A stretch of DNA of 64,000 nt from Candidatus Bathyarchaeia archaeon (GCA_050015395.1 JBEKBM010000007.1:33796-97795); one strand, 5' to 3'; positions 5,935 to 58,776 are shown, numbered from the stretch's first letter. Program-made: numbers and translations. Notes: generated from the sequence alone by a model not told the origin.

Positions 5935-6158
5935 CTGTTTTTTTGTTGAACAGTTTTGCTGTTCTACGTATATACAATATGTCCTTTTTCGGACATATCT
6001 TGAGTATTTAATATTAATAAACCCTAATATAAAGCTTCATACATAACCAAAGCATACAAAAACATAACAGCGCAATATAACCATAAAACAAAATTAACAT
6101 AAGCTAAATAAATCGAAACATCAACAAACTCATACAACAGCCAACAGGAAAGAAACCC

Positions 6159-6491
6159 ATGTCTGAAACATACAAAAAAGAAATTGTACAACACATAATC
6201 AGAAACTTACTAGACATGCAACTATTAAGAATAGTGCAAGCTCAACCAACATGGGGATATAAAATCAAAAAACAAGTAGAAGCAGATTTCAACATAAAAC
6301 TAAGACATGGCGCACTCTACCCCGCACTGAACACTCTTGAACAAAGAGGTTTTCTTGAAAGCAAAAAACAACAAAAAGATGGGCGTTCCCGCAAAGTCTA
6401 TGCTATAACAGAAAACGGCAAAGCCTACCTGCAAACCTACTACGGCATACTGCAAGGTCAACTGGGCAGTGGAAATATAAAAACCAGTTAA
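6159..6491 (+). CDS. PadR-family transcriptional regulator, divergent from its paralog
   Basis: WGYKIKK...GALYPALNTLEQRGFL...RKVYAITENG. Confidence 0.9.
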   Translation: MSETYKKEIVQHIIRNLLDMQLLRIVQAQPTWGYKIKKQVEADFNIKLRHGALYPALNTLEQRGFLESKKQQKDGRSRKVYAITENGKAYLQTYYGILQGQLGSGNIKTS

Positions 6492-6622
6492 CCTCAAATT
6501 GCGTTTATTGCTTAAAAAATTTTTGATTTTTTGATTTATACTTTAACATGCCAACTAGATTAGCCAATGAATAAGCATCAAAAAGCTTTTATTCTAAAAA
6601 AGACGACAGAAAACGGGGAAAA

Positions 6623-7294
6623 ATGATGACTTTAGAATCGAGCAAAAATTTGGGCGGCATAGGCGCAATACTAATACTGGTAGGCTCATTGGTTTCCACC
6701 TATACTTTTGGCGTTCTTGACCTTATTGGCGTAATACTTGTTTTCGTTGCACTGAACGGTTTAGCGAATTATTACCATGAAAGAGGCATATTCACTAATG
6801 CAATTTACAGTCTCGTTGCAGGCATAGTGGGCGTAGTAGCGGCAGCTGCGGCGGCTCTCTACATAATTTTTGACACAACCATACTGACAGGTTTTCTTAA
6901 GGATCTTTATCCGTCGTGGAACGGCAGTTGGTCAACAATTTCGTCACTTAGCGGCATGACACCCAGCACTTCAAGCATAACTACAAGTGATATCACATCC
7001 ATACTGGGCGCAGTATTTTTAGTGCTGGTGGTTCTGTGGGTTTTCGCTATAGTTGCAGCTTTCTTCGCCAGGCGATCACTCAAAACTCTTTCATCAAAAA
7101 CAAGCGTAGGTTTATTCTCAACTGCAGCGCTACTGCTAATCATAGGCGCATTTCTAACAATAATTTTCATAGGTGCCCTTCTGATGTGGATCGCTGCACT
7201 TTTGATTGCCATTGCCTTCTTCCAGATAAAACCGCAACCAGAACAACCCGTAGCAACAGCAACTCCTCCGCCGACAACGCCGACACCAGTTTAA
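6623..7294 (+). CDS. DUF996-like archaeal membrane protein
   Basis: LGGIGAIL start, multiple TM helices, Pro/Thr-rich tail. Confidence 0.75.
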   Translation: MMTLESSKNLGGIGAILILVGSLVSTYTFGVLDLIGVILVFVALNGLANYYHERGIFTNAIYSLVAGIVGVVAAAAAALYIIFDTTILTGFLKDLYPSWNGSWSTISSLSGMTPSTSSITTSDITSILGAVFLVLVVLWVFAIVAAFFARRSLKTLSSKTSVGLFSTAALLLIIGAFLTIIFIGALLMWIAALLIAIAFFQIKPQPEQPVATATPPPTTPTPV

Positions 7295-7476
7295 AAAGCG
7301 CTAAAAATCACCCTTTTTTTTCAATTTTATGCATGTCTTAAACTGGGAATTTTGGTTGTTGCCTGAAGGTGGGGTCTTTTGCGTAGGCGTTTTTGTGTGT
7401 GTGCGCAAGGGTACCCGATAGGAGGGCAAAGCATATACGGAAAGTCAATACAGTTCGTCGATACAGGAGAGCATCA

Positions 7477-7811
7477 TTGCCCAAAGTTTTTAAAGCGTTC
7501 AGGTTTGACCCTCAACTATACGTGAATTTCAAGAAGCTAGCAAGCAAAAAACGGCTACACCGCAACCGCTGCACTTGAAAAGTTCATGGCGGGCGCAGTC
7601 CAGTTTAGGCTTGTTTTTCCGTCGGCCAAAAATGAGGCGGCGCAAGCTGAAGCGCGTGTTATGCTGGCTTGGCTCAAAGAGGGCAAATACTGGGTAAACC
7701 TCGGAGAAAAAGCTGAAACAAGCACAAAAGGACGCCTACTTCAGCTTCTGCCAGATTGAAGACGCCGATTTGCGGAGAGACATTGAAGAGACACTGAAGA
7801 AGATGACTTAG
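7477..7811 (+). pseudogene. Frameshifted ribbon-helix-helix-like small protein
   Basis: TTG start after GGAG; MPKVFKAFRFDPQLYVNFKKLASK, shift in the A6 run near 7546, GYTATAALEKFM...LLQLLP, second shift, IEDADLRRDIEETLKKMT*. Confidence 0.5.
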
Positions 7812-7813
7812 CC
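7665..7813 (+). repeat. 149-bp direct repeat, left copy flanking hicBA
   Basis: Matches 8591-8739 with one mismatch seen. Confidence 0.92.
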
Positions 7814-7880
7814 TTTCGAGTTTTTCCCGTTGATTGTAAAGGGAAAGCTTAAAGAATTTCCGAGTGCCATATGCAGATAT

Positions 7881-8084
7881 ATGCTCAGCTACAGAGTGAT
7901 CATAGAGAAGGACGAAGACGGCGTTCTTATCGCTAAGGTTCCTGACCTGCCTGGTTGCGCCACCGAGGGTAAAACAAGGGAGGAACTGATGAAAAACGTC
8001 AAAGAAGCCATACAAGCATACCTTGAAGCGCTAAAGGAACACGGCGACCCAGTACCAATCGAAACGGTGCAAGTCAGTGTCTAA
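7881..8084 (+). CDS. hicB: HicB-family antitoxin (short form)
   Basis: YRVIIEKDEDG...VPDLPGCATEGKTREE...EAI; ATG at 7881. Confidence 0.9.
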   Translation: MLSYRVIIEKDEDGVLIAKVPDLPGCATEGKTREELMKNVKEAIQAYLEALKEHGDPVPIETVQVSV

Positions 8085-51891: not shown

Positions 51892-53758
51892 AGCAGCTTT
51901 TCCAATTAATGATTTGCTCAGAAGGAAGCTTCAGACAACCTTAACCATCGCCACTTTAACGTTAAGCGTTGCCTCTACACTGTTTCTTTTGCTATATGGC
52001 AGTCGTTTAGGCTTTAACTTAACCTCAGCCACTGGCACGTTAACTGAAGGCTTAACCACCACCCTTACTCAGTTCTTACTTTTCATCGGCATATTGATTT
52101 TTGCCGTAGGAGCAGTATTAACCTCCTTCATCGCTTTCTTAATGATGGCTCAACGAACACGCGATTTCGGCCTGATGAAGGCAGCCGGATGCCCAAATAA
52201 CCTTGTTGCAGGATACTTCATGACAGAACTTTTAACAACGACCCTTGCAGGATGCGTTTTAGGCATAATTCTTGGCTTTTTAATGGATTATGTCGCTGCT
52301 AATATCGTTTTTTCTACTTATCAGCTGCCCAATTTATGGTTTGCACCCTTGGTTTTCGGCGTATTTTTTGTTCTTTCACTAATTTTCGGGGCTCTACCCC
52401 TCCTTAAAGCATCTAGAATGTCACCAGTAAAGGCGCTTTCACCCGTAAACTATTACAGTTTAACCGCAGCAAACAAGCATAAACCGCTATCACGGTATGG
52501 TATAACTTGGAGAATCTCTACCAGAAGCTTGTATCGACGGCAATCAGCAAATCTCAGAATCATCGTATTGCTCTCAATAGTTTTCATTCTTCTAACGGTT
52601 TCTGTTGCGGGCGGAATTATTGCCAGCGGCACCACTATATCATGGGTTCAACAAACTACTAATAAAAACACAATTGCAGTAGCAACTAACAGCATGGGTA
52701 ACCAGTATGAACTGCTTTTATCAAAGTTTTCTGGAGCCTCAGAAACAGGCGTTTTTAACTATTCTGACCCAACACTGGCTATTCCAAAGGTAGTCATTGA
52801 GCAGCTTAGCACTCTGCCAAGTGTGAATGTGATAGATTCACGTTTAGTTTTAAATGAGCAGGTTCAAGAAATTGACAATTTCACCATTGACCCTGACACC
52901 ATGGTAACCTCGACTGTGGGCGGCAATAGAGAAGGAAATGCAATAGTAATCGGCGTTAATCCTGAAAATCTTACTGGCACATGGAATGTTGAGGGCCGAT
53001 TTTTAAATGCAAATGACGATTTTGAGGCTGTTATCGGCGATTCAATTGCTCAATCAATGTACACGCCTGACCCAAGCAAGCAAATAACATTATCCAATCC
53101 TCTGGTTGAAGGCATAGCTTTTCAAAATAACACCTTCAACATAATCGGAGTTTGCATAGATCCAATAAATAATGGTTTAGTAACCTACGTGCCTATTGAG
53201 AGACTGGAAAATATTACTGGTCTCTTTAACCCTAACCTACTATTAGTTACGCTAAGCAACTCAACGGATCAGTCTGTAGCTATTGCGCAAATCAAGACAT
53301 TAATTCAATCGATAGATCCGAACTTGAATGTTTTTCCGTTAAATGGCGTTGTTGAAAAGAACACGAATTTTTTAGCTTCAACTTGGCAGACGATAATGCT
53401 TCTTCCGCTTTTTATTTTAGCATCTGCTGCTCTTTGTCTAGTAGGTTACATGATGCTTGCGGTGGATGAGCAACATCAAGAATTCGCTGTTTTACGGGCT
53501 GTTGGCACTAAACCAAGAATTGTTATCTTTGTTTTGGCAATCCAAAGCTTAATTGTGCTGATTTCAAGCTTTGCGGTCGGAATATCGCTTGGTACTATTA
53601 TAACTCTGCTTATTTTGATGCCTCAGCCGCTAGTTACAAGCATTACAATCTTAGAGATAACAGGTTGGCTTCTTGCAGCTTTAGCTGGAATGTTCCTTTT
53701 TAGCCTTTACCCAGCCTTCAGGCTAGCTAAAACTTCAATTTTAAAAATTATGACTTAA
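51884..53758 (+). CDS. FtsX-like ABC permease
   Basis: QRTRDFGLMKAAG and EFAVLRAVG repeats. Confidence 0.88.
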   Translation: MSKAAFPINDLLRRKLQTTLTIATLTLSVASTLFLLLYGSRLGFNLTSATGTLTEGLTTTLTQFLLFIGILIFAVGAVLTSFIAFLMMAQRTRDFGLMKAAGCPNNLVAGYFMTELLTTTLAGCVLGIILGFLMDYVAANIVFSTYQLPNLWFAPLVFGVFFVLSLIFGALPLLKASRMSPVKALSPVNYYSLTAANKHKPLSRYGITWRISTRSLYRRQSANLRIIVLLSIVFILLTVSVAGGIIASGTTISWVQQTTNKNTIAVATNSMGNQYELLLSKFSGASETGVFNYSDPTLAIPKVVIEQLSTLPSVNVIDSRLVLNEQVQEIDNFTIDPDTMVTSTVGGNREGNAIVIGVNPENLTGTWNVEGRFLNANDDFEAVIGDSIAQSMYTPDPSKQITLSNPLVEGIAFQNNTFNIIGVCIDPINNGLVTYVPIERLENITGLFNPNLLLVTLSNSTDQSVAIAQIKTLIQSIDPNLNVFPLNGVVEKNTNFLASTWQTIMLLPLFILASAALCLVGYMMLAVDEQHQEFAVLRAVGTKPRIVIFVLAIQSLIVLISSFAVGISLGTIITLLILMPQPLVTSITILEITGWLLAALAGMFLFSLYPAFRLAKTSILKIMT

Positions 53759-54448
53759 AGAGTTGAAAGTTTTCGGAAAAAACTTGATTGATTCGGTGTA
53801 GGCTGGCAGTTGGTTTAGGAAATCTTGCAGTTGAAGTATGGGTACGATGGGGACCTCATAATAAAACTTGAATGAGCTGGGTATGAGGGATAATATGGAT
53901 GGAATAAACTTTGCCTCACTCCACTTTGTGCATTCAAGTTTTAGGGCGATGTTTGGCAACGAATCCGCTAATGCTCTTGTACGTTCCACCTGTGAATCCA
54001 CGATTCTCTTCAAAACCGAAGGTGCAATTGCATGTTGCCAATGTTTGCAATCTATGCAGACGACTAAGGGTTTCTTGCAGCCGACTACGTCTATTTCCCA
54101 TTTGCGAACTGCATTTTTAAATCGAACGTTATTTGACACCGCGTAGCCGTTGTTTTTCAATGCAAAAGCAGTAATTTCTTCAAACTCTTGCCAACAAAGC
54201 AAGTTGCTGATGTGCTCTACGTCTGCTCCTAAGGATGCTGCTTTAACTGCTAGTTTGAGCCTGCTGTTGTTTTCTACTTCGACGCTGTCCTGTTTTAAAT
54301 AAATGAGACCTTCGTTTTGCAGTTTTTTCAGCAATTTTCTTGCAGTTGCTGATGGTATGCGAGCATCTCTATTGACACTTTCAGTTAAAACAGGCCCTTT
54401 TTTCGTCAATTTCAGAAGAGAAATTACCAGATTACGCTCAACGCTCAT
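53741..54448 (-). CDS. Mrr-like restriction-endonuclease-fold protein with N-terminal wHTH
   Basis: WQEFEE...GY...EIDVV...IDCKHW. Confidence 0.75.
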   Translation of the reverse strand: MSVERNLVISLLKLTKKGPVLTESVNRDARIPSATARKLLKKLQNEGLIYLKQDSVEVENNSRLKLAVKAASLGADVEHISNLLCWQEFEEITAFALKNNGYAVSNNVRFKNAVRKWEIDVVGCKKPLVVCIDCKHWQHAIAPSVLKRIVDSQVERTRALADSLPNIALKLECTKWSEAKFIPSILSLIPSSFKFYYEVPIVPILQLQDFLNQLPAYTESIKFFPKTFNSLSHNF

Positions 54449-55866: not shown

Positions 55867-56202
55867 AAATTACACCTCCTCAAAATATGGTAACTACGCT
55901 AAAGGCATTGACAGTTAACTGCTTTTAAAAATTTGTGATTGTACATGCACAACAGCAAAAATTGCATTATAGTTTGGATTTGTAACTTATTCTTTTTTTT
56001 CAAAGTCAGCCCTAAGAAACTTTTTTGTTTAGAAGTGACTAGGCGCTTTTTGATTTAATGGTATGGATGGATATGTTTTATGCCGAACCATATTGTTGCT
56101 GCAAAGAGGGTTACGAACATTGCTTCAACTATCACTATTATCGAAAAGGTTGTCTGGAGATGTTCGTGCATCTCATAGATCTCGTTTGTGTGCAATCAGG
56201 AG

Positions 56203-56276
56203 TGGGCCGTACCGGATTTGAACCGGTGATCTTCGCCGCGTGAGGGCGACGTCCTAGCCAGCTAGACTAACGGCCC
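56203..56276 (-). tRNA. tRNA-Val(CAC), CCA not encoded
   Basis: Anticodon arm TCGCC-CTCACGC-GGCGA; GGTTCAAATCC T-arm. Confidence 0.95.
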
Positions 56277-56521
56277 GTTGGGTGCTGTGGATTGAAACTA
56301 CGTATTTTCCCTTCATAAAACCTTTCCCCTCACAAAGATAAACCGTAAGGAGGTGCATAAAATTGGGGCTTAGGAAAAAGCTTAATTTCGAATTGTCGCC
56401 TGATCAAGAAGGATTCCTGATGTTACTGTGCTTTTTAGGTTGCGGCTTAATAGGCTACTTCTTAACCCACTTCACGGGTTTCCTGCATTAATTAATTACC
56501 AAACTAGAGAACATATTCAAA

Positions 56522-56617
56522 TTCAGAAACCTTTAAAGCATTTCACTTCATTCTTGGATGTGGTCACTCCCAGCACACGGTGCCAAGGTAGCTCAGCCTG
56601 GGAGAGCATTTGACCTA
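56522..56617 (+). pseudogene. Decayed copy of tRNA-Phe promoter, leader and 5' exon (copy 1)
   Basis: TTCAGAAACCTTTAAA...TGGTCACTCCCAGCACACGGTGCCAAGGTAGCTCAGCCTGGGAGAGCATTTGACCTA versus 58610-58705. Confidence 0.88.
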
Positions 56618-56692
56618 TTGCTTTTATGCGTCTGGGTCTGAGTCCTGTTTGTAGAGCATATTTCAAATACAGATAACTTCAACTTAGTAGCG

Positions 56693-57307
56693 ATGACAGT
56701 TATCGAAATCGGTCCTGAGCTTTGCGAATTCGTCGGAGCAGTAATCGGAAATGGAAACTTGTGGACGGATGGTTCCCGTTACAGAGTTGAATTAACAGGG
56801 GACCCGGAACTCGATAAATCGTATTTTGAATATCTATCTGAACTTGCTTGCAGTGTCTTCGGGAAGAGCCCATATCCAGCCCGCGTTCACCAGAGAGGAC
56901 TACGATTAAGGCTTCAGTCCAAAAGCGCCTACAGATTCCTAACGGAACTAGGCATTCCTCAGGGGTCTGGAAAATCTCATGAAGTGATAATACCTGACCG
57001 AATCATGAAGGAAAATTGGGAACTGGTCAAATGGACCGTTAGAGGAATCATGGACACAGACGGCACCTTATTTTTCAGCAAAAAAACATACAGCGAGCCA
57101 ATTTATCCGACCATTGAACTGAGAACGTGCAGCAAAAAACTTGCCAATCAGGTGGAGAAGCTCTTATCTCAACAGAATTTCAGAGCACGTCTTAGAGGAA
57201 ACGAGAATGAAGGATTCCATGTTGCGCTCTATGGGACGGCGATGTTAAGAAAATGGGCTGTTGAGATAGGTTTCTCAAATTCCAAGCACGCCAACAAAGT
57301 TAAATAA
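56693..57307 (+). CDS. Free-standing LAGLIDADG homing endonuclease (two motifs)
   Basis: EFVGAVIGNG and VRGIMDTDG. Confidence 0.85.
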   Translation: MTVIEIGPELCEFVGAVIGNGNLWTDGSRYRVELTGDPELDKSYFEYLSELACSVFGKSPYPARVHQRGLRLRLQSKSAYRFLTELGIPQGSGKSHEVIIPDRIMKENWELVKWTVRGIMDTDGTLFFSKKTYSEPIYPTIELRTCSKKLANQVEKLLSQQNFRARLRGNENEGFHVALYGTAMLRKWAVEIGFSNSKHANKVK

Positions 57308-57373
57308 AGAAACTTTTAAGCACATCACCTCTTTTCTGAAATTGGTGGCTCAGGCACAACGCTGAGATAGCTC
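57308..57373 (+). pseudogene. More decayed copy of tRNA-Phe promoter, leader and 5' end (copy 2)
   Basis: AGAAACTTTTAA...TCTGAAATTGGT...GCACA...GCTGAGATAGCTC versus AGAAACCTTTAA...TCTGAATTTGGT...GCACA...GCCGAGGTAGCTC. Confidence 0.65.
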
Positions 57374-57621
57374 GCGTGAATCGCAGTTGGCAATTCTTTT
57401 CCACAAAATTCCGTTTCATGCCTAGTATTTATTAGACTCAGTCATAATCCGACCTATTATAGAATGATTGATTGCGGTTAGAAAAACATCTAATGCGGCC
57501 TATTTGCGAAATTTGAATATTCGGCTTAACGTGGAGTGGCATGAGATTAGAAGCTTGCAGAAATTTGGACTTTTATGATATTATAGATAACGATTTAAAG
57601 AGTACACTATAATCGTAGCTT

Positions 57622-58494
57622 ATGAAAGGCAGGCCAAATATTCCCAAAAAAATTGCAGACCAACTTTTGGTTGAATCTAGGCACACATGTAACGTGTGCA
57701 AAAGAGCTGTTGCATCTATACATCATATTGAGAAAATTAACTCAGCGGAGGGAAATTCTCCATCTAATCTAGTAGTTCTTTGTCCGGAATGTCACAGACG
57801 GGCAGAATTTCCAAATCATTTTGAACGTAAAATAACGACTTCTCAACTCAGAAAATATAAAAAAGATTGGACAGAATTTTGCAAGGCTTTTCCAACAATT
57901 GCTTTCGAAAAGCCTGTTATAGCTTACTGTTTCTTAAACGAGCCTAGAATTAACATGATATTTAATCAACTGGCCAATCCTGTAGACAATTCAAAAGTAA
58001 TGGAGCTGAAACGAGAAACTATCGAGGCAAACGTGCCCTCATTGTTTAGGAGAATGCCATTAGAAAGGATGATGCAAATTGTGATCAACAATTTGAATTT
58101 CATTAATCTGGAAACAATAGAAAGGAAAAAAACATTACGCTATTTGGAAAAATTAGAAGGCTTCCCAGTATGTGGGACTAGAGATTTTTATTCAAACGGG
58201 CTCAAGCCCCCACAGTTTTATCAAAAGCATGGAATCACAGATATGCCGTACATTTATAACAAGCGAAAAATCGGGAATAAGATAATCAAAACAAAGGTGA
58301 CATATGATCCAAAATATGTAATTTCAATGACAGCATATGTCGAATTATCTGGGCATCATCGATTATCATTCTACGGCATCGTGAAAAGAGTTAAAAGCGA
58401 TGGAGACACGATAACACTTGAAATCCTGCCACTTGCGATAGGCTTAAGACAGCCAATAGATCCGATAAGCACACATTTTAGACTTTTCTATTAG
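57622..58494 (+). CDS. HNH endonuclease domain protein with uncharacterised C-terminal domain
   Basis: CNVC...IHHI...N...NLVVLCPECH. Confidence 0.85.
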   Translation: MKGRPNIPKKIADQLLVESRHTCNVCKRAVASIHHIEKINSAEGNSPSNLVVLCPECHRRAEFPNHFERKITTSQLRKYKKDWTEFCKAFPTIAFEKPVIAYCFLNEPRINMIFNQLANPVDNSKVMELKRETIEANVPSLFRRMPLERMMQIVINNLNFINLETIERKKTLRYLEKLEGFPVCGTRDFYSNGLKPPQFYQKHGITDMPYIYNKRKIGNKIIKTKVTYDPKYVISMTAYVELSGHHRLSFYGIVKRVKSDGDTITLEILPLAIGLRQPIDPISTHFRLFY

Positions 58495-58669
58495 CCAATA
58501 GACAAAATTCATTACTTTTTCTATTGCCATCACTGTTGGACGCTTTGATATTCTTAGAAGAATTTAACGTGAAAAATAAATTGAGTAGTCAAACCAAACA
58601 AATGTTCCTTTCAGAAACCTTTAAAACGCTTCATCTCATCTCTGAATTTGGTCACTCCCAGCACACGGT

Positions 58670-58776
58670 GCCGAGGTAGCTCAGCCTGGGAGAGCGCTCG
58701 ACCTAGCTGCTTCTCGTAGTTGGGGGCGAAGCTGAAGACCGAGTCGTCGCAGGTTCAAACCCTGCCCTCGGCACCA
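58670..58776 (+). tRNA. tRNA-Phe(GAA) with a 30-nt BHB intron (58701-58730) at non-canonical position 30/31
   Basis: Removing the intron restores CTCGG-CTGAAGA-CCGAG; BHB central helix CGCT/GGCG with bulges CG|A and AA|G; ACCA end. Confidence 0.92.

Follow-up and report, generated by a model that had tools for sequence, protein, structure and literature searches.

The locus described here raises the question of how a single archaeal tRNA gene came to be preceded by partial copies of its own 5′ end, with nuclease genes lying between them. It occurs in the metagenome-assembled genome of a Candidatus Bathyarchaeia archaeon, within a stretch of 64,000 nucleotides that was analyzed as a whole and that we call the window (GCA_050015395.1, JBEKBM010000007.1:33796-97795). 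The origin of non-canonical introns, orphan halves and split genes among archaeal tRNAs is an old question, and earlier proposals for such disruption invoked integrating viruses or plasmids, or introns as protection. The locus and its relatives suggest one way in which archaeal tRNA genes could gain introns and leftover halves.

Between positions 56516 and 58776, the window contains, in this order and all on the plus strand, a displaced copy of the promoter and tRNA 5′ end (c1), a LAGLIDADG gene (hereafter LAG), a second such copy (c2), an HNH gene, and a third copy (c3) that belongs to an intact tRNA-Phe(GAA). An original prediction, made from the sequence, had listed these elements in the same order, and each was recovered about where it had been placed, using Rfam, Pfam, blastn and Smith-Waterman alignment. 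The three copies are direct repeats of roughly 85-108 nt that include the promoter. An inserted block of ~2.0 kb (56618-58609) accounts for LAG, HNH and the replacement promoter and 5′ exon. No integrase is present in this 2-kb insert, whose only ORFs are LAG and HNH, or adjoining it, as had also been predicted. Around the array lie genes for two transporters, one ABC/FtsX and one MMPL, and a NERD/Mrr-like ORF whose synteny is conserved in relatives.

The intact tRNA-Phe (58670..58776, including the intron and CCA) is the sole tRNA-Phe found in the assembly and matches the Rfam tRNA model with 46.4 bits (E 6e-8). Its 5′ exon (58670-58700) is followed by a mini-intron of 30 nt (58701-58730), located between tRNA positions 30 and 31, then by the 3′ exon (58731-58773) and CCA. 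The tRNA-Phe genes of intronless relatives align to it as nucleotides 1-31 joined directly to 62-107. Upstream, the working promoter with its BRE/TATA and the leader, which together form c3, extend over 58606..58669, as judged by alignments. ARAGORN misses this tRNA in its default mode and wrongly calls it Thr(cgt) when introns are allowed. Because of this failure, ARAGORN isotypes for intron-bearing genes in the 80 LAG loci discussed below were not trusted. A separate ARAGORN “Phe” call on another contig (C4) was rejected, since by eye it has an Asp GTC anticodon loop.

The mini-intron can be folded into an hBHBh′ structure, in which a 4-bp helix stands between two 3-nt bulges that contain the splice sites, with a further helix on either side. 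Written out by hand and checked over 10 sequences, this structure has 96.7% of its cells paired, versus 33-45% in controls in which it was slid along the sequences. Helix H is paired in 100% of cells and h′ in 95%, and h′ includes three pairs with changes on both sides. In BHB motifs, cutting occurs between the second and third bulge nucleotides. The mini-intron is a textbook hBHBh′ element by its pairing, and it is predicted to be spliced. It is found in all nine LAG-bearing Bathyarchaeia loci, including the window, and in only one (G019) of 17 LAG-less congeners whose tRNA-Phe locus was compared.

The copy farthest upstream, c1 (~56516..56624), consists of a promoter (BRE/TATA at ~56529-56545), a leader, a 31-nt 5′ exon (56581-56611) and the start of an intron. 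In a blastn search of the whole 2.59-Mb genome, it matches c3 with 85.4% identity over 96 nt (E 1e-25), and this similarity runs from about −72 through the 5′ exon and ~13 nt into the intron. However, the promoter and leader of c1 are closer to the resident promoters of three relatives (95% identity for G003, 90% for G004 and 90% for G019) than to c3, with which they share 82%. The best match of c3 is instead in L050 (85%, as compared to 82-84% for G003, G004 and G019), which is the only other locus that bears an HNH gene. In addition, c1 is continuous with the intergenic region of G004 and G019 at ~90% identity, and has an A4 in common with G004. These alignments show that c1 and c3 have different origins.

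In fact, c1 is a mosaic. Its left part resembles resident sequence, and the remainder, beginning at about tRNA +25, is cassette-like and matches the sequence that precedes LAG in L051. The 3′ part is therefore of the cassette lineage, and is not a fresh decay product of the resident gene. The original prediction had described c1 as decayed, with similarity fading just after the 5′ splice site. The lineage of the 3′ part corrects this description. The switch at ~+25 is the pattern expected from a left crossover located inside the 5′ exon.

The similarity of c2 (~57296..57373) is weak, and blastn over the whole genome does not find it. Nevertheless, its Smith-Waterman score against c3 is 37, versus 15.8 ± 2.4 for dinucleotide shuffles, and this score was reached by none of 2000 shuffles and none of 5000 random windows of the genome. 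Failure of a significance test by c2 would have counted against the original prediction; against c3, c2 passes. Against c1, the score of 29 was reached by one of 2000 shuffles and three of 5000 windows. Scores of 25-37 were obtained with six promoter/tRNA-Phe units of type A, and of 16-22 with the other scored units, four of which are also of type A. L050 has a homologous copy, also decayed, at the corresponding position. The copy comprises a decayed promoter, a leader and nucleotides 1-13 of tRNA-Phe, ending at about +13. It had been predicted to begin at the base after the LAGLIDADG stop codon; it is indeed located approximately there, but starts within the last codons of the ORF and overlaps the stop.

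The LAG gene (56693..57307) encodes 204 amino acids with two LAGLIDADG motifs that are visible in the alignment of homologues, and matches PF14528 (LAGLIDADG_3) with 25.8 bits (cut-off 22.5). We found 86 homologues, and a profile of this family matches solved LAGLIDADG domains (7qsu, 1e-8; 2dch, 5e-7; I-DmoI, 3e-3). The D of motif 2 is invariant and is kept in the window. Motif 1 reads G-D-G outside Bathyarchaeia and in two of nine aligned Bathyarchaeial homologues, and G-N-G in the window and in the other seven. By analogy with mutant studies, the replacement of the acidic D by N may mean that the protein is a nickase or inactive. Between LAG orthologues, synonymous change has reached saturation, and dN/dS is 0.05-0.15 where it can be estimated; by this measure, the gene is under purifying selection. 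In its own genome, tblastn found no paralogue of LAG or of HNH.

Within the 5′ region of LAG (56625..56692), a TATA-like motif at 56660-56669 was aligned between the window and seven other Bathyarchaeia loci. It is exact in five of the seven, one base off in L049 and degenerate in L054. The original prediction proposed that an old promoter is left to drive the newcomer nuclease gene, and this idea has only indirect support: displaced promoters are conserved in several loci. Against it, both nuclease genes have TATA-like boxes of their own.

The LAGLIDADG family is linked to tRNA-Phe across archaeal phyla, as shown by the gene neighborhoods compared. In each of the eight other Bathyarchaeia loci (L049-L055 and L112), tRNA-Phe is preceded, on its own strand, by LAG or what remains of it. 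Seven of the gaps measure 56-104 nt; the gap in L050 contains HNH and measures 1181 nt. A contiguous Phe 3′ half occurs at most 300 nt from LAG in 28 of 80 loci, against ~0.025 expected per locus, according to a regex count, set against a background rate; the count misses canonical-intron genes and L050. A regex search for whole tRNA-Phe genes was either too strict or gave wrong 5′ ends, and only the 3′-half count was kept. Many homologous ORFs terminate within the TATA box of the tRNA promoter, and gene and promoter are therefore physically coupled.

In Nanoarchaeota and Desulfurococcales, LAG is located within a BHB intron of tRNA-Phe at 30/31. The tRNA-Phe intron that contains the gene is at 30/31 in L066 and L122 and at 31/32 in L063, and the 3′ end of the intron in L066 and L122 has the same motif as the mini-intron of the window. 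A group I intron reading of these 630-662-nt introns was rejected: the ORF fills all but ~50-110 nt, and by eye the ends pair as a BHB. The link across phyla and the intron-encoded members fit a homing origin. A LAGLIDADG enzyme is expected to cut at the intron site.

The HNH gene (57622..58494) encodes 290 amino acids, of which residues 23-60 match PF01844 with 27.6 bits (cut-off 21.4). This N-terminus is an HNH/zinc-ribbon nuclease motif, and the C-terminal ~190 amino acids match no known family. Among 5.8 billion proteins, there are only nine homologues. All nine sequences have the second Cys pair and the H of C-x-E-C-H, and eight of them have the first pair. The gene is known from only two genomic contexts and lies between LAG and tRNA-Phe in each; the orthologue in L050, at the same position, is pseudogenized. 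Across 401 genomes of the class, the only matches were to the N-terminal motif, and a scan of metagenomes retrieved the window's own contig and, beyond it, no more than three weak HNH-motif matches. The blastn match between the window and L050 starts at the ATG (57622), and in both a TATA-like box precedes it, in the window ~25-35 nt upstream within the HNH 5′ region (57374..57621). An AF2 model has a mean pLDDT of 59, with values below 50 in the N-terminal 99 residues. Its best Foldseek matches are the OB-folds of Asp/Lys-tRNA synthetases and PriB (E 3e-4 to 1e-2, TM ~0.25), a weak, model-based likeness that we treat as a lead and not as an assignment.

The original prediction expected relatives to differ at this locus, and they do, as do alleles in the source habitat. 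The analysis drew on about 55 species genomes of the genus, for which at least about 55 exist. The closest relative by its flanks is G004 (91.4% identity over 6390 nt upstream, 85-89% downstream). It has an exact empty site: tRNA-Val, the intergenic region, the promoter and an intronless tRNA-Phe, without the 2-kb block. This empty site, together with the resident-like c1 and the closeness of c3 to L050, bears out the predicted arrival of DNA that brings its own promoter and 5′ half as replacements. Of the eight other Bathyarchaeia loci, four have displaced 5′ copies upstream of LAG (L049, L050, L052 and L053), and L051 has a decayed one. None of 10 non-Bathyarchaeial loci with LAG upstream of tRNA-Phe that were scored had a displaced 5′ exon upstream of LAG scoring above shuffles. 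Displaced copies end at +13 (c2), +14 (G002 and L085), +15 (L049), +18 (L050, L052 and L053) or 13 nt into the intron (c1), so that most ends lie 12-17 nt from the 30/31 intron site.

Given that the window comes from a metagenome-assembled genome and that relatives with other alleles live in the same habitat, the promoter/5′-exon repeats could have led an assembler to chain pieces of different strains. We regard such an artefact as extremely improbable. In three of four peat-metagenome runs, none of which is flagged as the source sample, single contigs of 2292 nt span 56389-58680, from c1 to the start of c3, with 0 differences, and in the fourth run a 2106-nt contig spans 56578-58683. Moreover, an independent assembly of another species (L050) has this gene order too. 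Both observations contradict the misassembly that the original prediction had named as a refutation. Two further alleles occur in these peat runs: one carries a scar of LAG (joints 56356->57263 and 57286->56522), and the other is empty and intronless (joint 56607->58731). Their coexistence with the full array is consistent with cyclical invasion, decay and loss.

We think it probable that homing-type cassettes replace the 5′ part of the tRNA gene and that the mini-intron masks their target. According to this proposal, the ~2.0-kb block would have recombined into the single tRNA-Phe gene. The LAG family would originally have been encoded inside a BHB intron at 30/31 of archaeal tRNA-Phe. In Bathyarchaeia, the ORF is found outside the intron: a truncated old 5′ copy precedes it, and it is followed by a complete tRNA-Phe that keeps only the 30-nt, ORF-less intron. 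From these observations, we infer the following cleavage, repair-mediated spread and order of events. The putative nuclease would cut or nick an intronless tRNA-Phe gene. The cassette-bearing allele would then be the repair template, with the 5′ exon as its left arm and the tRNA body as its right arm. Copied between the arms would be the intron start, the nuclease gene or genes, a new promoter, a new 5′ exon and the mini-intron, and the resident promoter and 5′ exon would be pushed upstream as c1. The tRNA would stay functional with no need to splice a 650-nt intron, and the carrier would be protected by a mini-intron that interrupts the target sequence. The position of the cut and this immunity are likewise presumed, and the homing activity of both LAGLIDADG and HNH proteins on tRNA-Phe DNA is putative. 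Several observations weigh against the proposal: the N in motif 1 of LAG, the differing ends of the displaced copies and the distance of most of them from the expected cut site, the displaced 5′ end in G002 with its non-nuclease cargo, the lack of displaced 5′ exons upstream of LAG in the 10 scored loci outside Bathyarchaeia, and the fact that HNH has just two known contexts.

In the same proposal, c2 would be the relic of an earlier round in the donor lineage, in which an HNH cassette with c3 entered a LAG-linked tRNA copy at about +13. The original prediction held that the cassettes entered one by one. For this genome, serial entry is not upheld, because the composite LAG-c2-HNH-c3 already exists in another species (L050, 70-81% nucleotide identity) and the whole block may therefore have come in one event. 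Arrival in one event would explain why c1 is less decayed than c2.

A long vertical residence with losses may nonetheless be part of the history, since LAG synonymous sites are saturated, the synteny of tRNA-Val and tRNA-Phe is kept and no near-identical donor was found. In its full form, this alternative posits one ancient partial tandem duplication of an intron- and ORF-bearing tRNA-Phe, followed by partial losses, with nuclease genes that are resident, perhaps domesticated or inactive, and immobile today. The purifying selection on LAG, the N for an acidic residue in motif 1 and the composite shared with L050 agree with it, as does the persistence of tRNA-Val: of the eight other Bathyarchaeia loci, six retain it, and the sequence retrieved for the remaining two showed none. 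We consider it unlikely, because the clean empty site of G004, with 91% identical flanks, also lacks the intron, which a simple deletion between c1 and c3 would keep, and because the nearest relatives of c1 and c3 differ. Beyond G000, a LAG orthologue was found at the locus in only one of 24 congeners, as a remnant. The remnant in G003 has 68.5% nucleotide identity, compared to 81-91% for its flanks, and scar and empty alleles occur beside the full array in the same runs.

The repeats at the borders might instead be relics of integration. Decayed plasmid- or virus-like elements with an integrase of the pNOB8 or SSV type and an att site in the 5′ part of tRNA-Phe would have left att-type direct repeats (c1, c2 and c3) and two cargo nuclease genes. 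A 5′ tRNA-Thr fragment in Caldiarchaeum, with a recombinase gene between it and an intron-gaining tRNA, provides a precedent (PMC3293823). Additionally, G002 has a similar displaced 5′ fragment whose cargo is a Na+/H+ exchanger with no nuclease, and without nucleotide homologues in the other loci compared, and an att core whose edge lies at +13 to +18 could account for the recurrent boundaries there. However, there is no integrase-sized ORF in or beside the insert, and none in the interval between tRNA-Val and tRNA-Phe of the six other Bathyarchaeia loci in which Val was found, which contains only LAG, HNH and a TIR/Nuc_deoxyrib-like ORF. For an att site, a repeat that begins at about −72 and reaches into the intron is long. 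Random cargo would not predict the link of LAG to tRNA-Phe across phyla, or its residence in introns at three loci. On balance, integration by an integrase seems quite unlikely to us.

The original prediction set 5′-end duplication apart from the common 3′-end tRNA duplications, but archaeal 5′-end tRNA fragments left by mobile elements were already known. In Caldiarchaeum subterraneum, the 5′ fragment of tRNA-Thr(GGU) is a direct repeat 1.8 kb upstream, a mobile insert lies between it and the reconstituted tRNA, which has an extra non-canonical intron, and the authors propose the intron as protection (Sugahara et al. 2012, PMC3293823). The displaced 5′ fragment, the insert and the intron in the working tRNA all resemble the locus described here. 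That insert has a DNA recombinase and is modeled as a site-specific integration of attP and attB, whereas the present locus has no recombinase, but has homing-type nuclease genes from a LAGLIDADG family that is intron-encoded elsewhere.

Another comparison is provided by fungal mitochondria, where an essential gene is invaded by a LAGLIDADG (or GIY-YIG) ORF that brings a foreign version of the displaced segment with it (Allomyces macrogynus atp6; Glomus atp6, atp9, cox2 and nad3; PMC3630166). The native part survives as an adjacent duplicate and is nearer to relatives' genes than the incoming copy is, much as c1 is 90-95% identical to relatives and 82% to c3. In these fungal examples, the 3′ (C-terminal) end of a protein gene is replaced, often with the ORF fused in frame. 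At the present locus, by contrast, the 5′ end and promoter of an archaeal tRNA are replaced, a BHB mini-intron is brought along and two nuclease cassettes are stacked.

The LAG protein itself is a two-motif monomeric LAGLIDADG protein of ~200 amino acids, like I-DmoI, the “putative homing endonuclease” of PDB 2dch and a V-ATPase intein endonuclease domain. Known archaeal LAGLIDADG endonucleases sit in rRNA introns or inteins. The family described here shares the location within BHB-type introns in L063, L066 and L122, but is linked to tRNA-Phe and, in Bathyarchaeia, is free-standing with a duplicated 5′ exon. The locus also resembles that of the T4 SegB gene, a free-standing phage gene for a GIY-YIG homing endonuclease beside tRNA genes. 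SegB would promote the inheritance of its own neighborhood after cutting an allele without the nuclease, and involves no duplication of a tRNA 5′ half or promoter and no intron. The literature that we searched contained no description of a homing endonuclease gene in an archaeal tRNA intron, and the word “homing” occurs 0 times in a 2014 review (PMC4090602).

The locus and its relatives offer a concrete, integrase-free alternative to earlier proposals, with every intermediate on view: a nuclease in the intron, a nuclease outside it with a duplicated promoter/5′ exon and mini-intron, scar alleles, and naive intronless alleles in the same habitat. They also give the fungal mitochondrial endonuclease cassettes, with their replacement gene ends, an equivalent in a prokaryote, here for the 5′ end of an RNA gene. 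More tentatively, an intron-borne LAG might have escaped by duplicating the promoter and 5′ exon, and such nucleases might be a general engine of archaeal tRNA gene disruption, although we would rather doubt than assert this. It is similarly conceivable, though speculative, that the cassette now spreads, delivers a pre-interrupted, immune tRNA copy and, with every invasion, leaves behind a promoter-equipped orphan 5′ half. If a general engine of this kind exists, it would provide a direct route to introns at position 30/31 and to free-standing 5′ halves for split tRNA genes, and further nuclease or defence genes would stack at the same site, for example HNH here and, in L050, a TIR-like ORF.

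A further observation concerns the tRNA-Val(CAC) gene on the minus strand (56202..56276; ARAGORN, and 65.4 bits with Rfam). Lying outside the insert, it is a conserved left neighbor of tRNA-Phe and an anchor of the ancestral synteny, and in most congeners the distance between the two tRNA genes is 268-644 nt.

Each element of the array as first described was confirmed. A tRNA-Val(CAC) gene (56202-56276, minus strand) is followed, after a spacer of ~240 nt, by the first of three promoter/5′-end copies of tRNA-Phe (c1, ~56516-56624), which comprises a BRE/TATA-type promoter, a leader, the 31-nt tRNA-Phe 5′ exon and ~13 nt of intron. Then come a LAGLIDADG ORF of 204 aa (56693-57307), the second copy (c2, ~57296-57373), with a decayed promoter, leader and tRNA nt 1-13, and an HNH ORF of 290 aa (57622-58494). 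The ORFs match Pfam LAGLIDADG_3 and Pfam HNH, respectively, each above Pfam's own cut-off. The promoter and leader of the third copy (c3, 58606-58669) directly precede the intact tRNA-Phe(GAA) gene (58670-58776; Rfam tRNA model 46.4 bits, E 6e-8). Because this gene has a 30-nt intron between positions 30 and 31, ARAGORN overlooks it or calls it Thr; when the tRNA-Phe of intronless relatives is aligned to it, query 1-31 is joined straight to 62-107. No second tRNA-Phe was found in the 2.59-Mb assembly, and neither nuclease gene has a paralogue in this genome.

The copies c1 and c3 are 85.4% identical over 96 nt (genome-wide E 1e-25). The similarity of c2 is weak and is not reported by blastn. 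Its local alignment with c3 scores 37, which none of 2000 dinucleotide shuffles (15.8 ± 2.4) and none of 5000 random genome windows reached; its score of 29 with c1 was reached by one shuffle and three windows. Two classes of upstream region, type A and type B, occur before tRNA-Phe in the genus. Against six type-A promoter/tRNA-Phe units c2 scores 25-37, and against the remaining scored units, which include four further type-A units and units sharing only the tRNA exon, 16-22. A relic homologous to c2, decayed even further, lies at the same place in L050, a locus of another species. We regard c2 as real.

At least 93% of the words sampled from the stretch occur in 24 peat or wetland runs from 23 studies. 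We compared alleles in four runs, none flagged as the source. In three of them, a single 2292-nt contig covers 56389-58680 with zero differences, and the fourth yields a 2106-nt contig. Such single contigs spanning the array rule out an assembly artefact, a concern raised with the original prediction. Related alleles, at 90-95% likeness, are present in the same runs. One is empty, with an intronless, cassette-free tRNA-Phe after a c1-type promoter (joint 56607 to 58731). Another carries a scar, with the spacer running into the final 24 nt of the LAGLIDADG gene and these into a promoter of the c1 type (joints 56356 to 57263 and 57286 to 56522). The full array thus occurs alongside potential targets and decayed forms. 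Homing endonuclease genes pass through a cycle of invasion, decay and loss, which these coexisting full, scar and empty alleles appear to match.

Sequenced relatives are also variable at this locus. The tRNA-Val and tRNA-Phe genes are adjacent, 268-644 nt apart, in most of 24 congeners. Across the genus, this distance varies between 268 and 4902 nt, and longer intervals contain unrelated cargo genes; the interval is a general hot spot. The flanks most similar to those of the window belong to G004 (91.4% over 6390 nt upstream, 85-89% downstream), in which tRNA-Val, spacer, promoter and intronless tRNA-Phe follow one another with nothing in between, i.e., an empty site. G019 has the same single-copy layout, but its tRNA-Phe has an intron. 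G003 retains a LAGLIDADG remnant of 74 C-terminal residues (66% amino-acid identity) that abuts the promoter as the window gene does. Among the fetched congener tRNA-Phe loci, 16 genomes are intronless, and, besides G000, an intron occurs only in G003 and G019. A 235-aa ORF with nuclease-related NERD and Mrr_cat domains (53744-54448, minus strand) is located 1.8 kb to the left of tRNA-Val; it lies outside the insert, since G003 and G004 have it in synteny.

Over promoter and leader (-60 to -1), the identity of c1 is 95% with G003, 90% with each of G004 and G019, and 82% with c3. For c3, the top match is L050 (85%), the sole other locus bearing the HNH gene. Therefore, the promoter in c1 is the resident one, and c3 arrived as part of the insert. 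An unusual A4 is also common to c1 and G004. The original prediction viewed c1 as decayed. Its promoter and 5′ exon are indeed the displaced resident ones, but from about tRNA +25 on, its aberrant anticodon-stem and intron-start sequence is cassette sequence, common to the region upstream of the LAGLIDADG gene in L051, where the preceding exon is much more decayed. This rules out a simply decaying resident copy. Thus, c1 is a mosaic, resident on the left and cassette on the right, which is the footprint that would be expected from a crossover inside the 5′ exon.

Displaced fragments of promoter, leader and tRNA 5′ end also occur upstream of the LAGLIDADG gene in other Bathyarchaeia. They end at +15 in L049, at +18 in L052 and L053 (18-21 nt identical to the working copy) and at +18 in L050, 1.7 kb upstream; L051 has a decayed form. 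Outside Bathyarchaeia, none of 10 loci showed a displaced 5′ exon. The BRE/TATA boxes of the displaced copies are mostly intact, which indirectly suggests that the old promoter may serve the nuclease gene. Yet a TATA-like motif upstream of the LAGLIDADG start (56660-56669) is exact in five of seven aligned loci, one base off in L049 and degenerate in L054, and the HNH gene has its own TATA-like box in the window and L050. These boxes would count against use of the old promoters, and the earlier claim that those promoters drive the nuclease genes is not established. Many Bathyarchaeial LAGLIDADG ORFs extend into the tRNA promoter, with the stop codon in the TATA box.

The LAGLIDADG protein has 86 homologues in the protein collection, and those with a named source belong to MAGs of Bathyarchaeota, Micrarchaeota and Nanoarchaeota. 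When 20 homologues were combined into a profile, it matched solved LAGLIDADG domains (intein endonuclease, 1e-8; 2dch, 5e-7; I-DmoI, 3e-3). The aspartate of motif 2 is invariant; in motif 1, the window and 7 of 9 aligned Bathyarchaeial homologues have N, and more distant ones D. Bathyarchaeial orthologues have saturated dS, dN of 0.15-0.30 and dN/dS of 0.05-0.15 where estimable, and they appear to be old, functional genes.

We examined the contexts of the gene in 80 loci of species-representative genomes. In 28 of the 80, a contiguous Phe 3′ half is no more than 300 nt away, a count that leaves out canonical-intron genes (ARAGORN Phe calls in L059, L064, L103 and L124) and L050; ~0.025 per locus is expected from the rest of the same loci. 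In eight Bathyarchaeia loci (L049-L055 and L112), the gene or its remnant precedes a co-oriented tRNA-Phe with an intron, at a distance of 56-104 nt in seven loci and of 1181 nt in L050. Loci of Micrarchaeota and Marsarchaeota, and some others, have it 29-54 nt before a tRNA-Phe that lacks an intron, and in several DPANN loci it adjoins tRNA-Phe on the opposite strand. The gene is inside a 650-660-nt tRNA-Phe intron at position 30/31 in L066 (Nanoarchaeota) and L122 (Desulfurococcales), and inside one at 31/32 in L063 (Undinarchaeota). Distant homologues (below ~43% identity) are often beside other tRNA genes. Two paralogues at 28-30% identity, L023 (G005:C25) and L024 (G026:C4), also have tRNA neighbors, a tRNA-Met on the opposite strand 118 nt downstream and a tRNA-Thr ~165 nt upstream; L023 has additional tRNA-3′-end-like repeats.

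All nine LAGLIDADG-bearing Bathyarchaeia loci, including the window, have an intron of 30-31 nt whose fold is a textbook hBHBh′ motif. A 4-bp helix joins exon nt 25-28 to the four nt just before the last two of the intron, flanked by the bulges C29-G30^A and A-A^G31, a 9-bp interior hairpin and an outer helix of 2 bp (positions 23-24 with 32-33). In 10 sequences, this pairing holds in 96.7% of cells, compared to 33-45% for slid partners, and three hairpin pairs have changed on both sides. The LAGLIDADG-bearing introns of L066 and L122 have the same 4-bp helix and the same intron 3′ end, and by eye the position-28 pair covaries (U.G in the window, A-U in L066, C-G in L122). Given the common helix and 3′ end, the mini-intron is probably best seen as an ORF-less form of the LAGLIDADG intron. 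It would interrupt the sequence that an intron-homing enzyme would recognize.

The HNH family is rare, with 9 homologues among 5.8 billion proteins and no full-length match in 401 genomes of the class. Its only second context, L050, has the order tRNA-Val, displaced copy, a TIR/Nuc_deoxyrib-like ORF in opposite orientation, LAGLIDADG gene, c2 relic, HNH gene broken into pieces of 175 and 82 aa, c3-type promoter and intron-bearing tRNA-Phe. The HNH-c3 part is 81% identical to that of the window over 1161 nt, and the LAGLIDADG gene 70%. The composite common to both is therefore older than either genome. The original prediction envisaged serial entry into this genome; this is not established, since the composite may have arrived as one block, which would explain why c1, the outermost copy, is the least decayed. 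The stacking itself appears to have occurred in a donor lineage, and L050 suggests that a third gene can be added. A candidate for such a third cassette is the 303-aa ORF of L050 (L050:2926-3837, minus strand; Nuc_deoxyrib_tr E 2.4e-5 and TIR_2 E 4e-3, both under Pfam's cut-offs), which is situated between the displaced copy and the LAGLIDADG gene. The HNH C-terminal domain (residues ~100-276, modelled at pLDDT 66-88) has weak Foldseek matches to OB-folds of Asp/Lys/Asn-tRNA synthetase anticodon-binding domains and PriB (E 3e-4 to 1e-2), an unproven hint of a nucleic-acid-binding module.

The idea of an integrase-free, homing-like replacement of the 5′ half was largely right in kind, considering the empty site in G004 and the contrast between resident c1 and incoming c3. 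We regard homing-type spread of the cassette as reasonably probable. A cut or nick in an intronless tRNA-Phe gene would be repaired from a cassette-bearing allele, with the 5′ exon as left homology arm and the tRNA body as right arm. The resident promoter and 5′ exon would be left upstream, and the installed tRNA copy would be immune because it is already interrupted. Integration of an integrase type, since decayed, has an archaeal precedent in Caldiarchaeum (PMC3293823), but no integrase was found in any locus examined here and we consider it improbable.

Homing-type spread has weak points of its own. The acidic residue of LAGLIDADG motif 1 is replaced by N, and the displaced copies end (+13 to +18, or intron +13) off the 30/31 site. 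In the congener G002, a promoter with tRNA nt 1-14 is displaced with a Na+/H+ exchanger and a different promoter class, without a nuclease. The LAGLIDADG divergence is saturated, and a close donor was not found. An old vertical rearrangement without present mobility seems doubtful.

Among known systems, the closest functional analogue of the array is the mobile ORFs of fungal mitochondria, which bring a replacement C-terminus of atp6, atp9, cox2 or nad3 while the native end stays as a duplicate (PMC3630166). The closest archaeal analogue is the Caldiarchaeum tRNA-Thr locus. The full-text literature searched, in which few subscription journals are represented, yielded neither an account of an archaeal tRNA intron with a homing endonuclease gene inside it nor one of a nuclease cassette replacing a tRNA 5′ half. 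The word "homing" is absent from a 2014 review of tRNA introns (PMC4090602).

We now note additional properties of individual loci. In G002 (L034, G002:C4:398310-409388; locus 6016-8079), a displaced type-A promoter, leader and tRNA-Phe nt 1-14 are followed by ~1.9 kb of cargo, a type-B upstream region and an intact intronless tRNA-Phe. The cargo encodes the exchanger (PF00999, 186 bits) and no nuclease gene, and the 10 nt that immediately follow the junction correspond, in reverse complement, to the hallmark 10-mer of the type-B region. Over the 75 nt upstream compared, type B occurs in G002, G007, G013, G014, G020, G021, G023 and G024, marked by a 15-mer conserved at about -72 to -58. In G004, the working tRNA-Phe (L028, oriented position 8061) has the same A at position 4 as c1 (56581-56587), giving an A4.C69 mismatch in the acceptor stem; G004 is 71% complete, and a second gene is possible. 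Two contig ends of G008, L031 (C15) and L032 (C4), carry identical promoter/tRNA-Phe units, which may reflect either a repeat at which the assembly broke or a genuine duplication. In L085 (Woesearchaeota), tRNA-Phe nt 1-14 are duplicated downstream of the LAGLIDADG gene, ~40 nt upstream of the real tRNA gene (2329-2432) and separated from it by 28 nt, a further break at +14.

Non-canonical introns seem common in the window's own genome. A "tRNA-Phe" called by ARAGORN at C4:38400-38502 was rejected, as its anticodon loop by eye is GTC (Asp); this gene has an insertion after the anticodon arm. Another gene, at C34:5791-5944 (called Leu with a 68-nt intron), has D and T arms in common with tRNA-Phe. 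In C22:17000-23000, three tRNA 3′-end copies (T arm and acceptor) are interspersed among ORFs, one of which, of 317 aa, has an N-terminus judged TIR-like by eye. The ARAGORN "tRNA-Ser with 1014-nt intron" there is probably spurious, and the region resembles the usual kind of island at tRNA 3′ ends.
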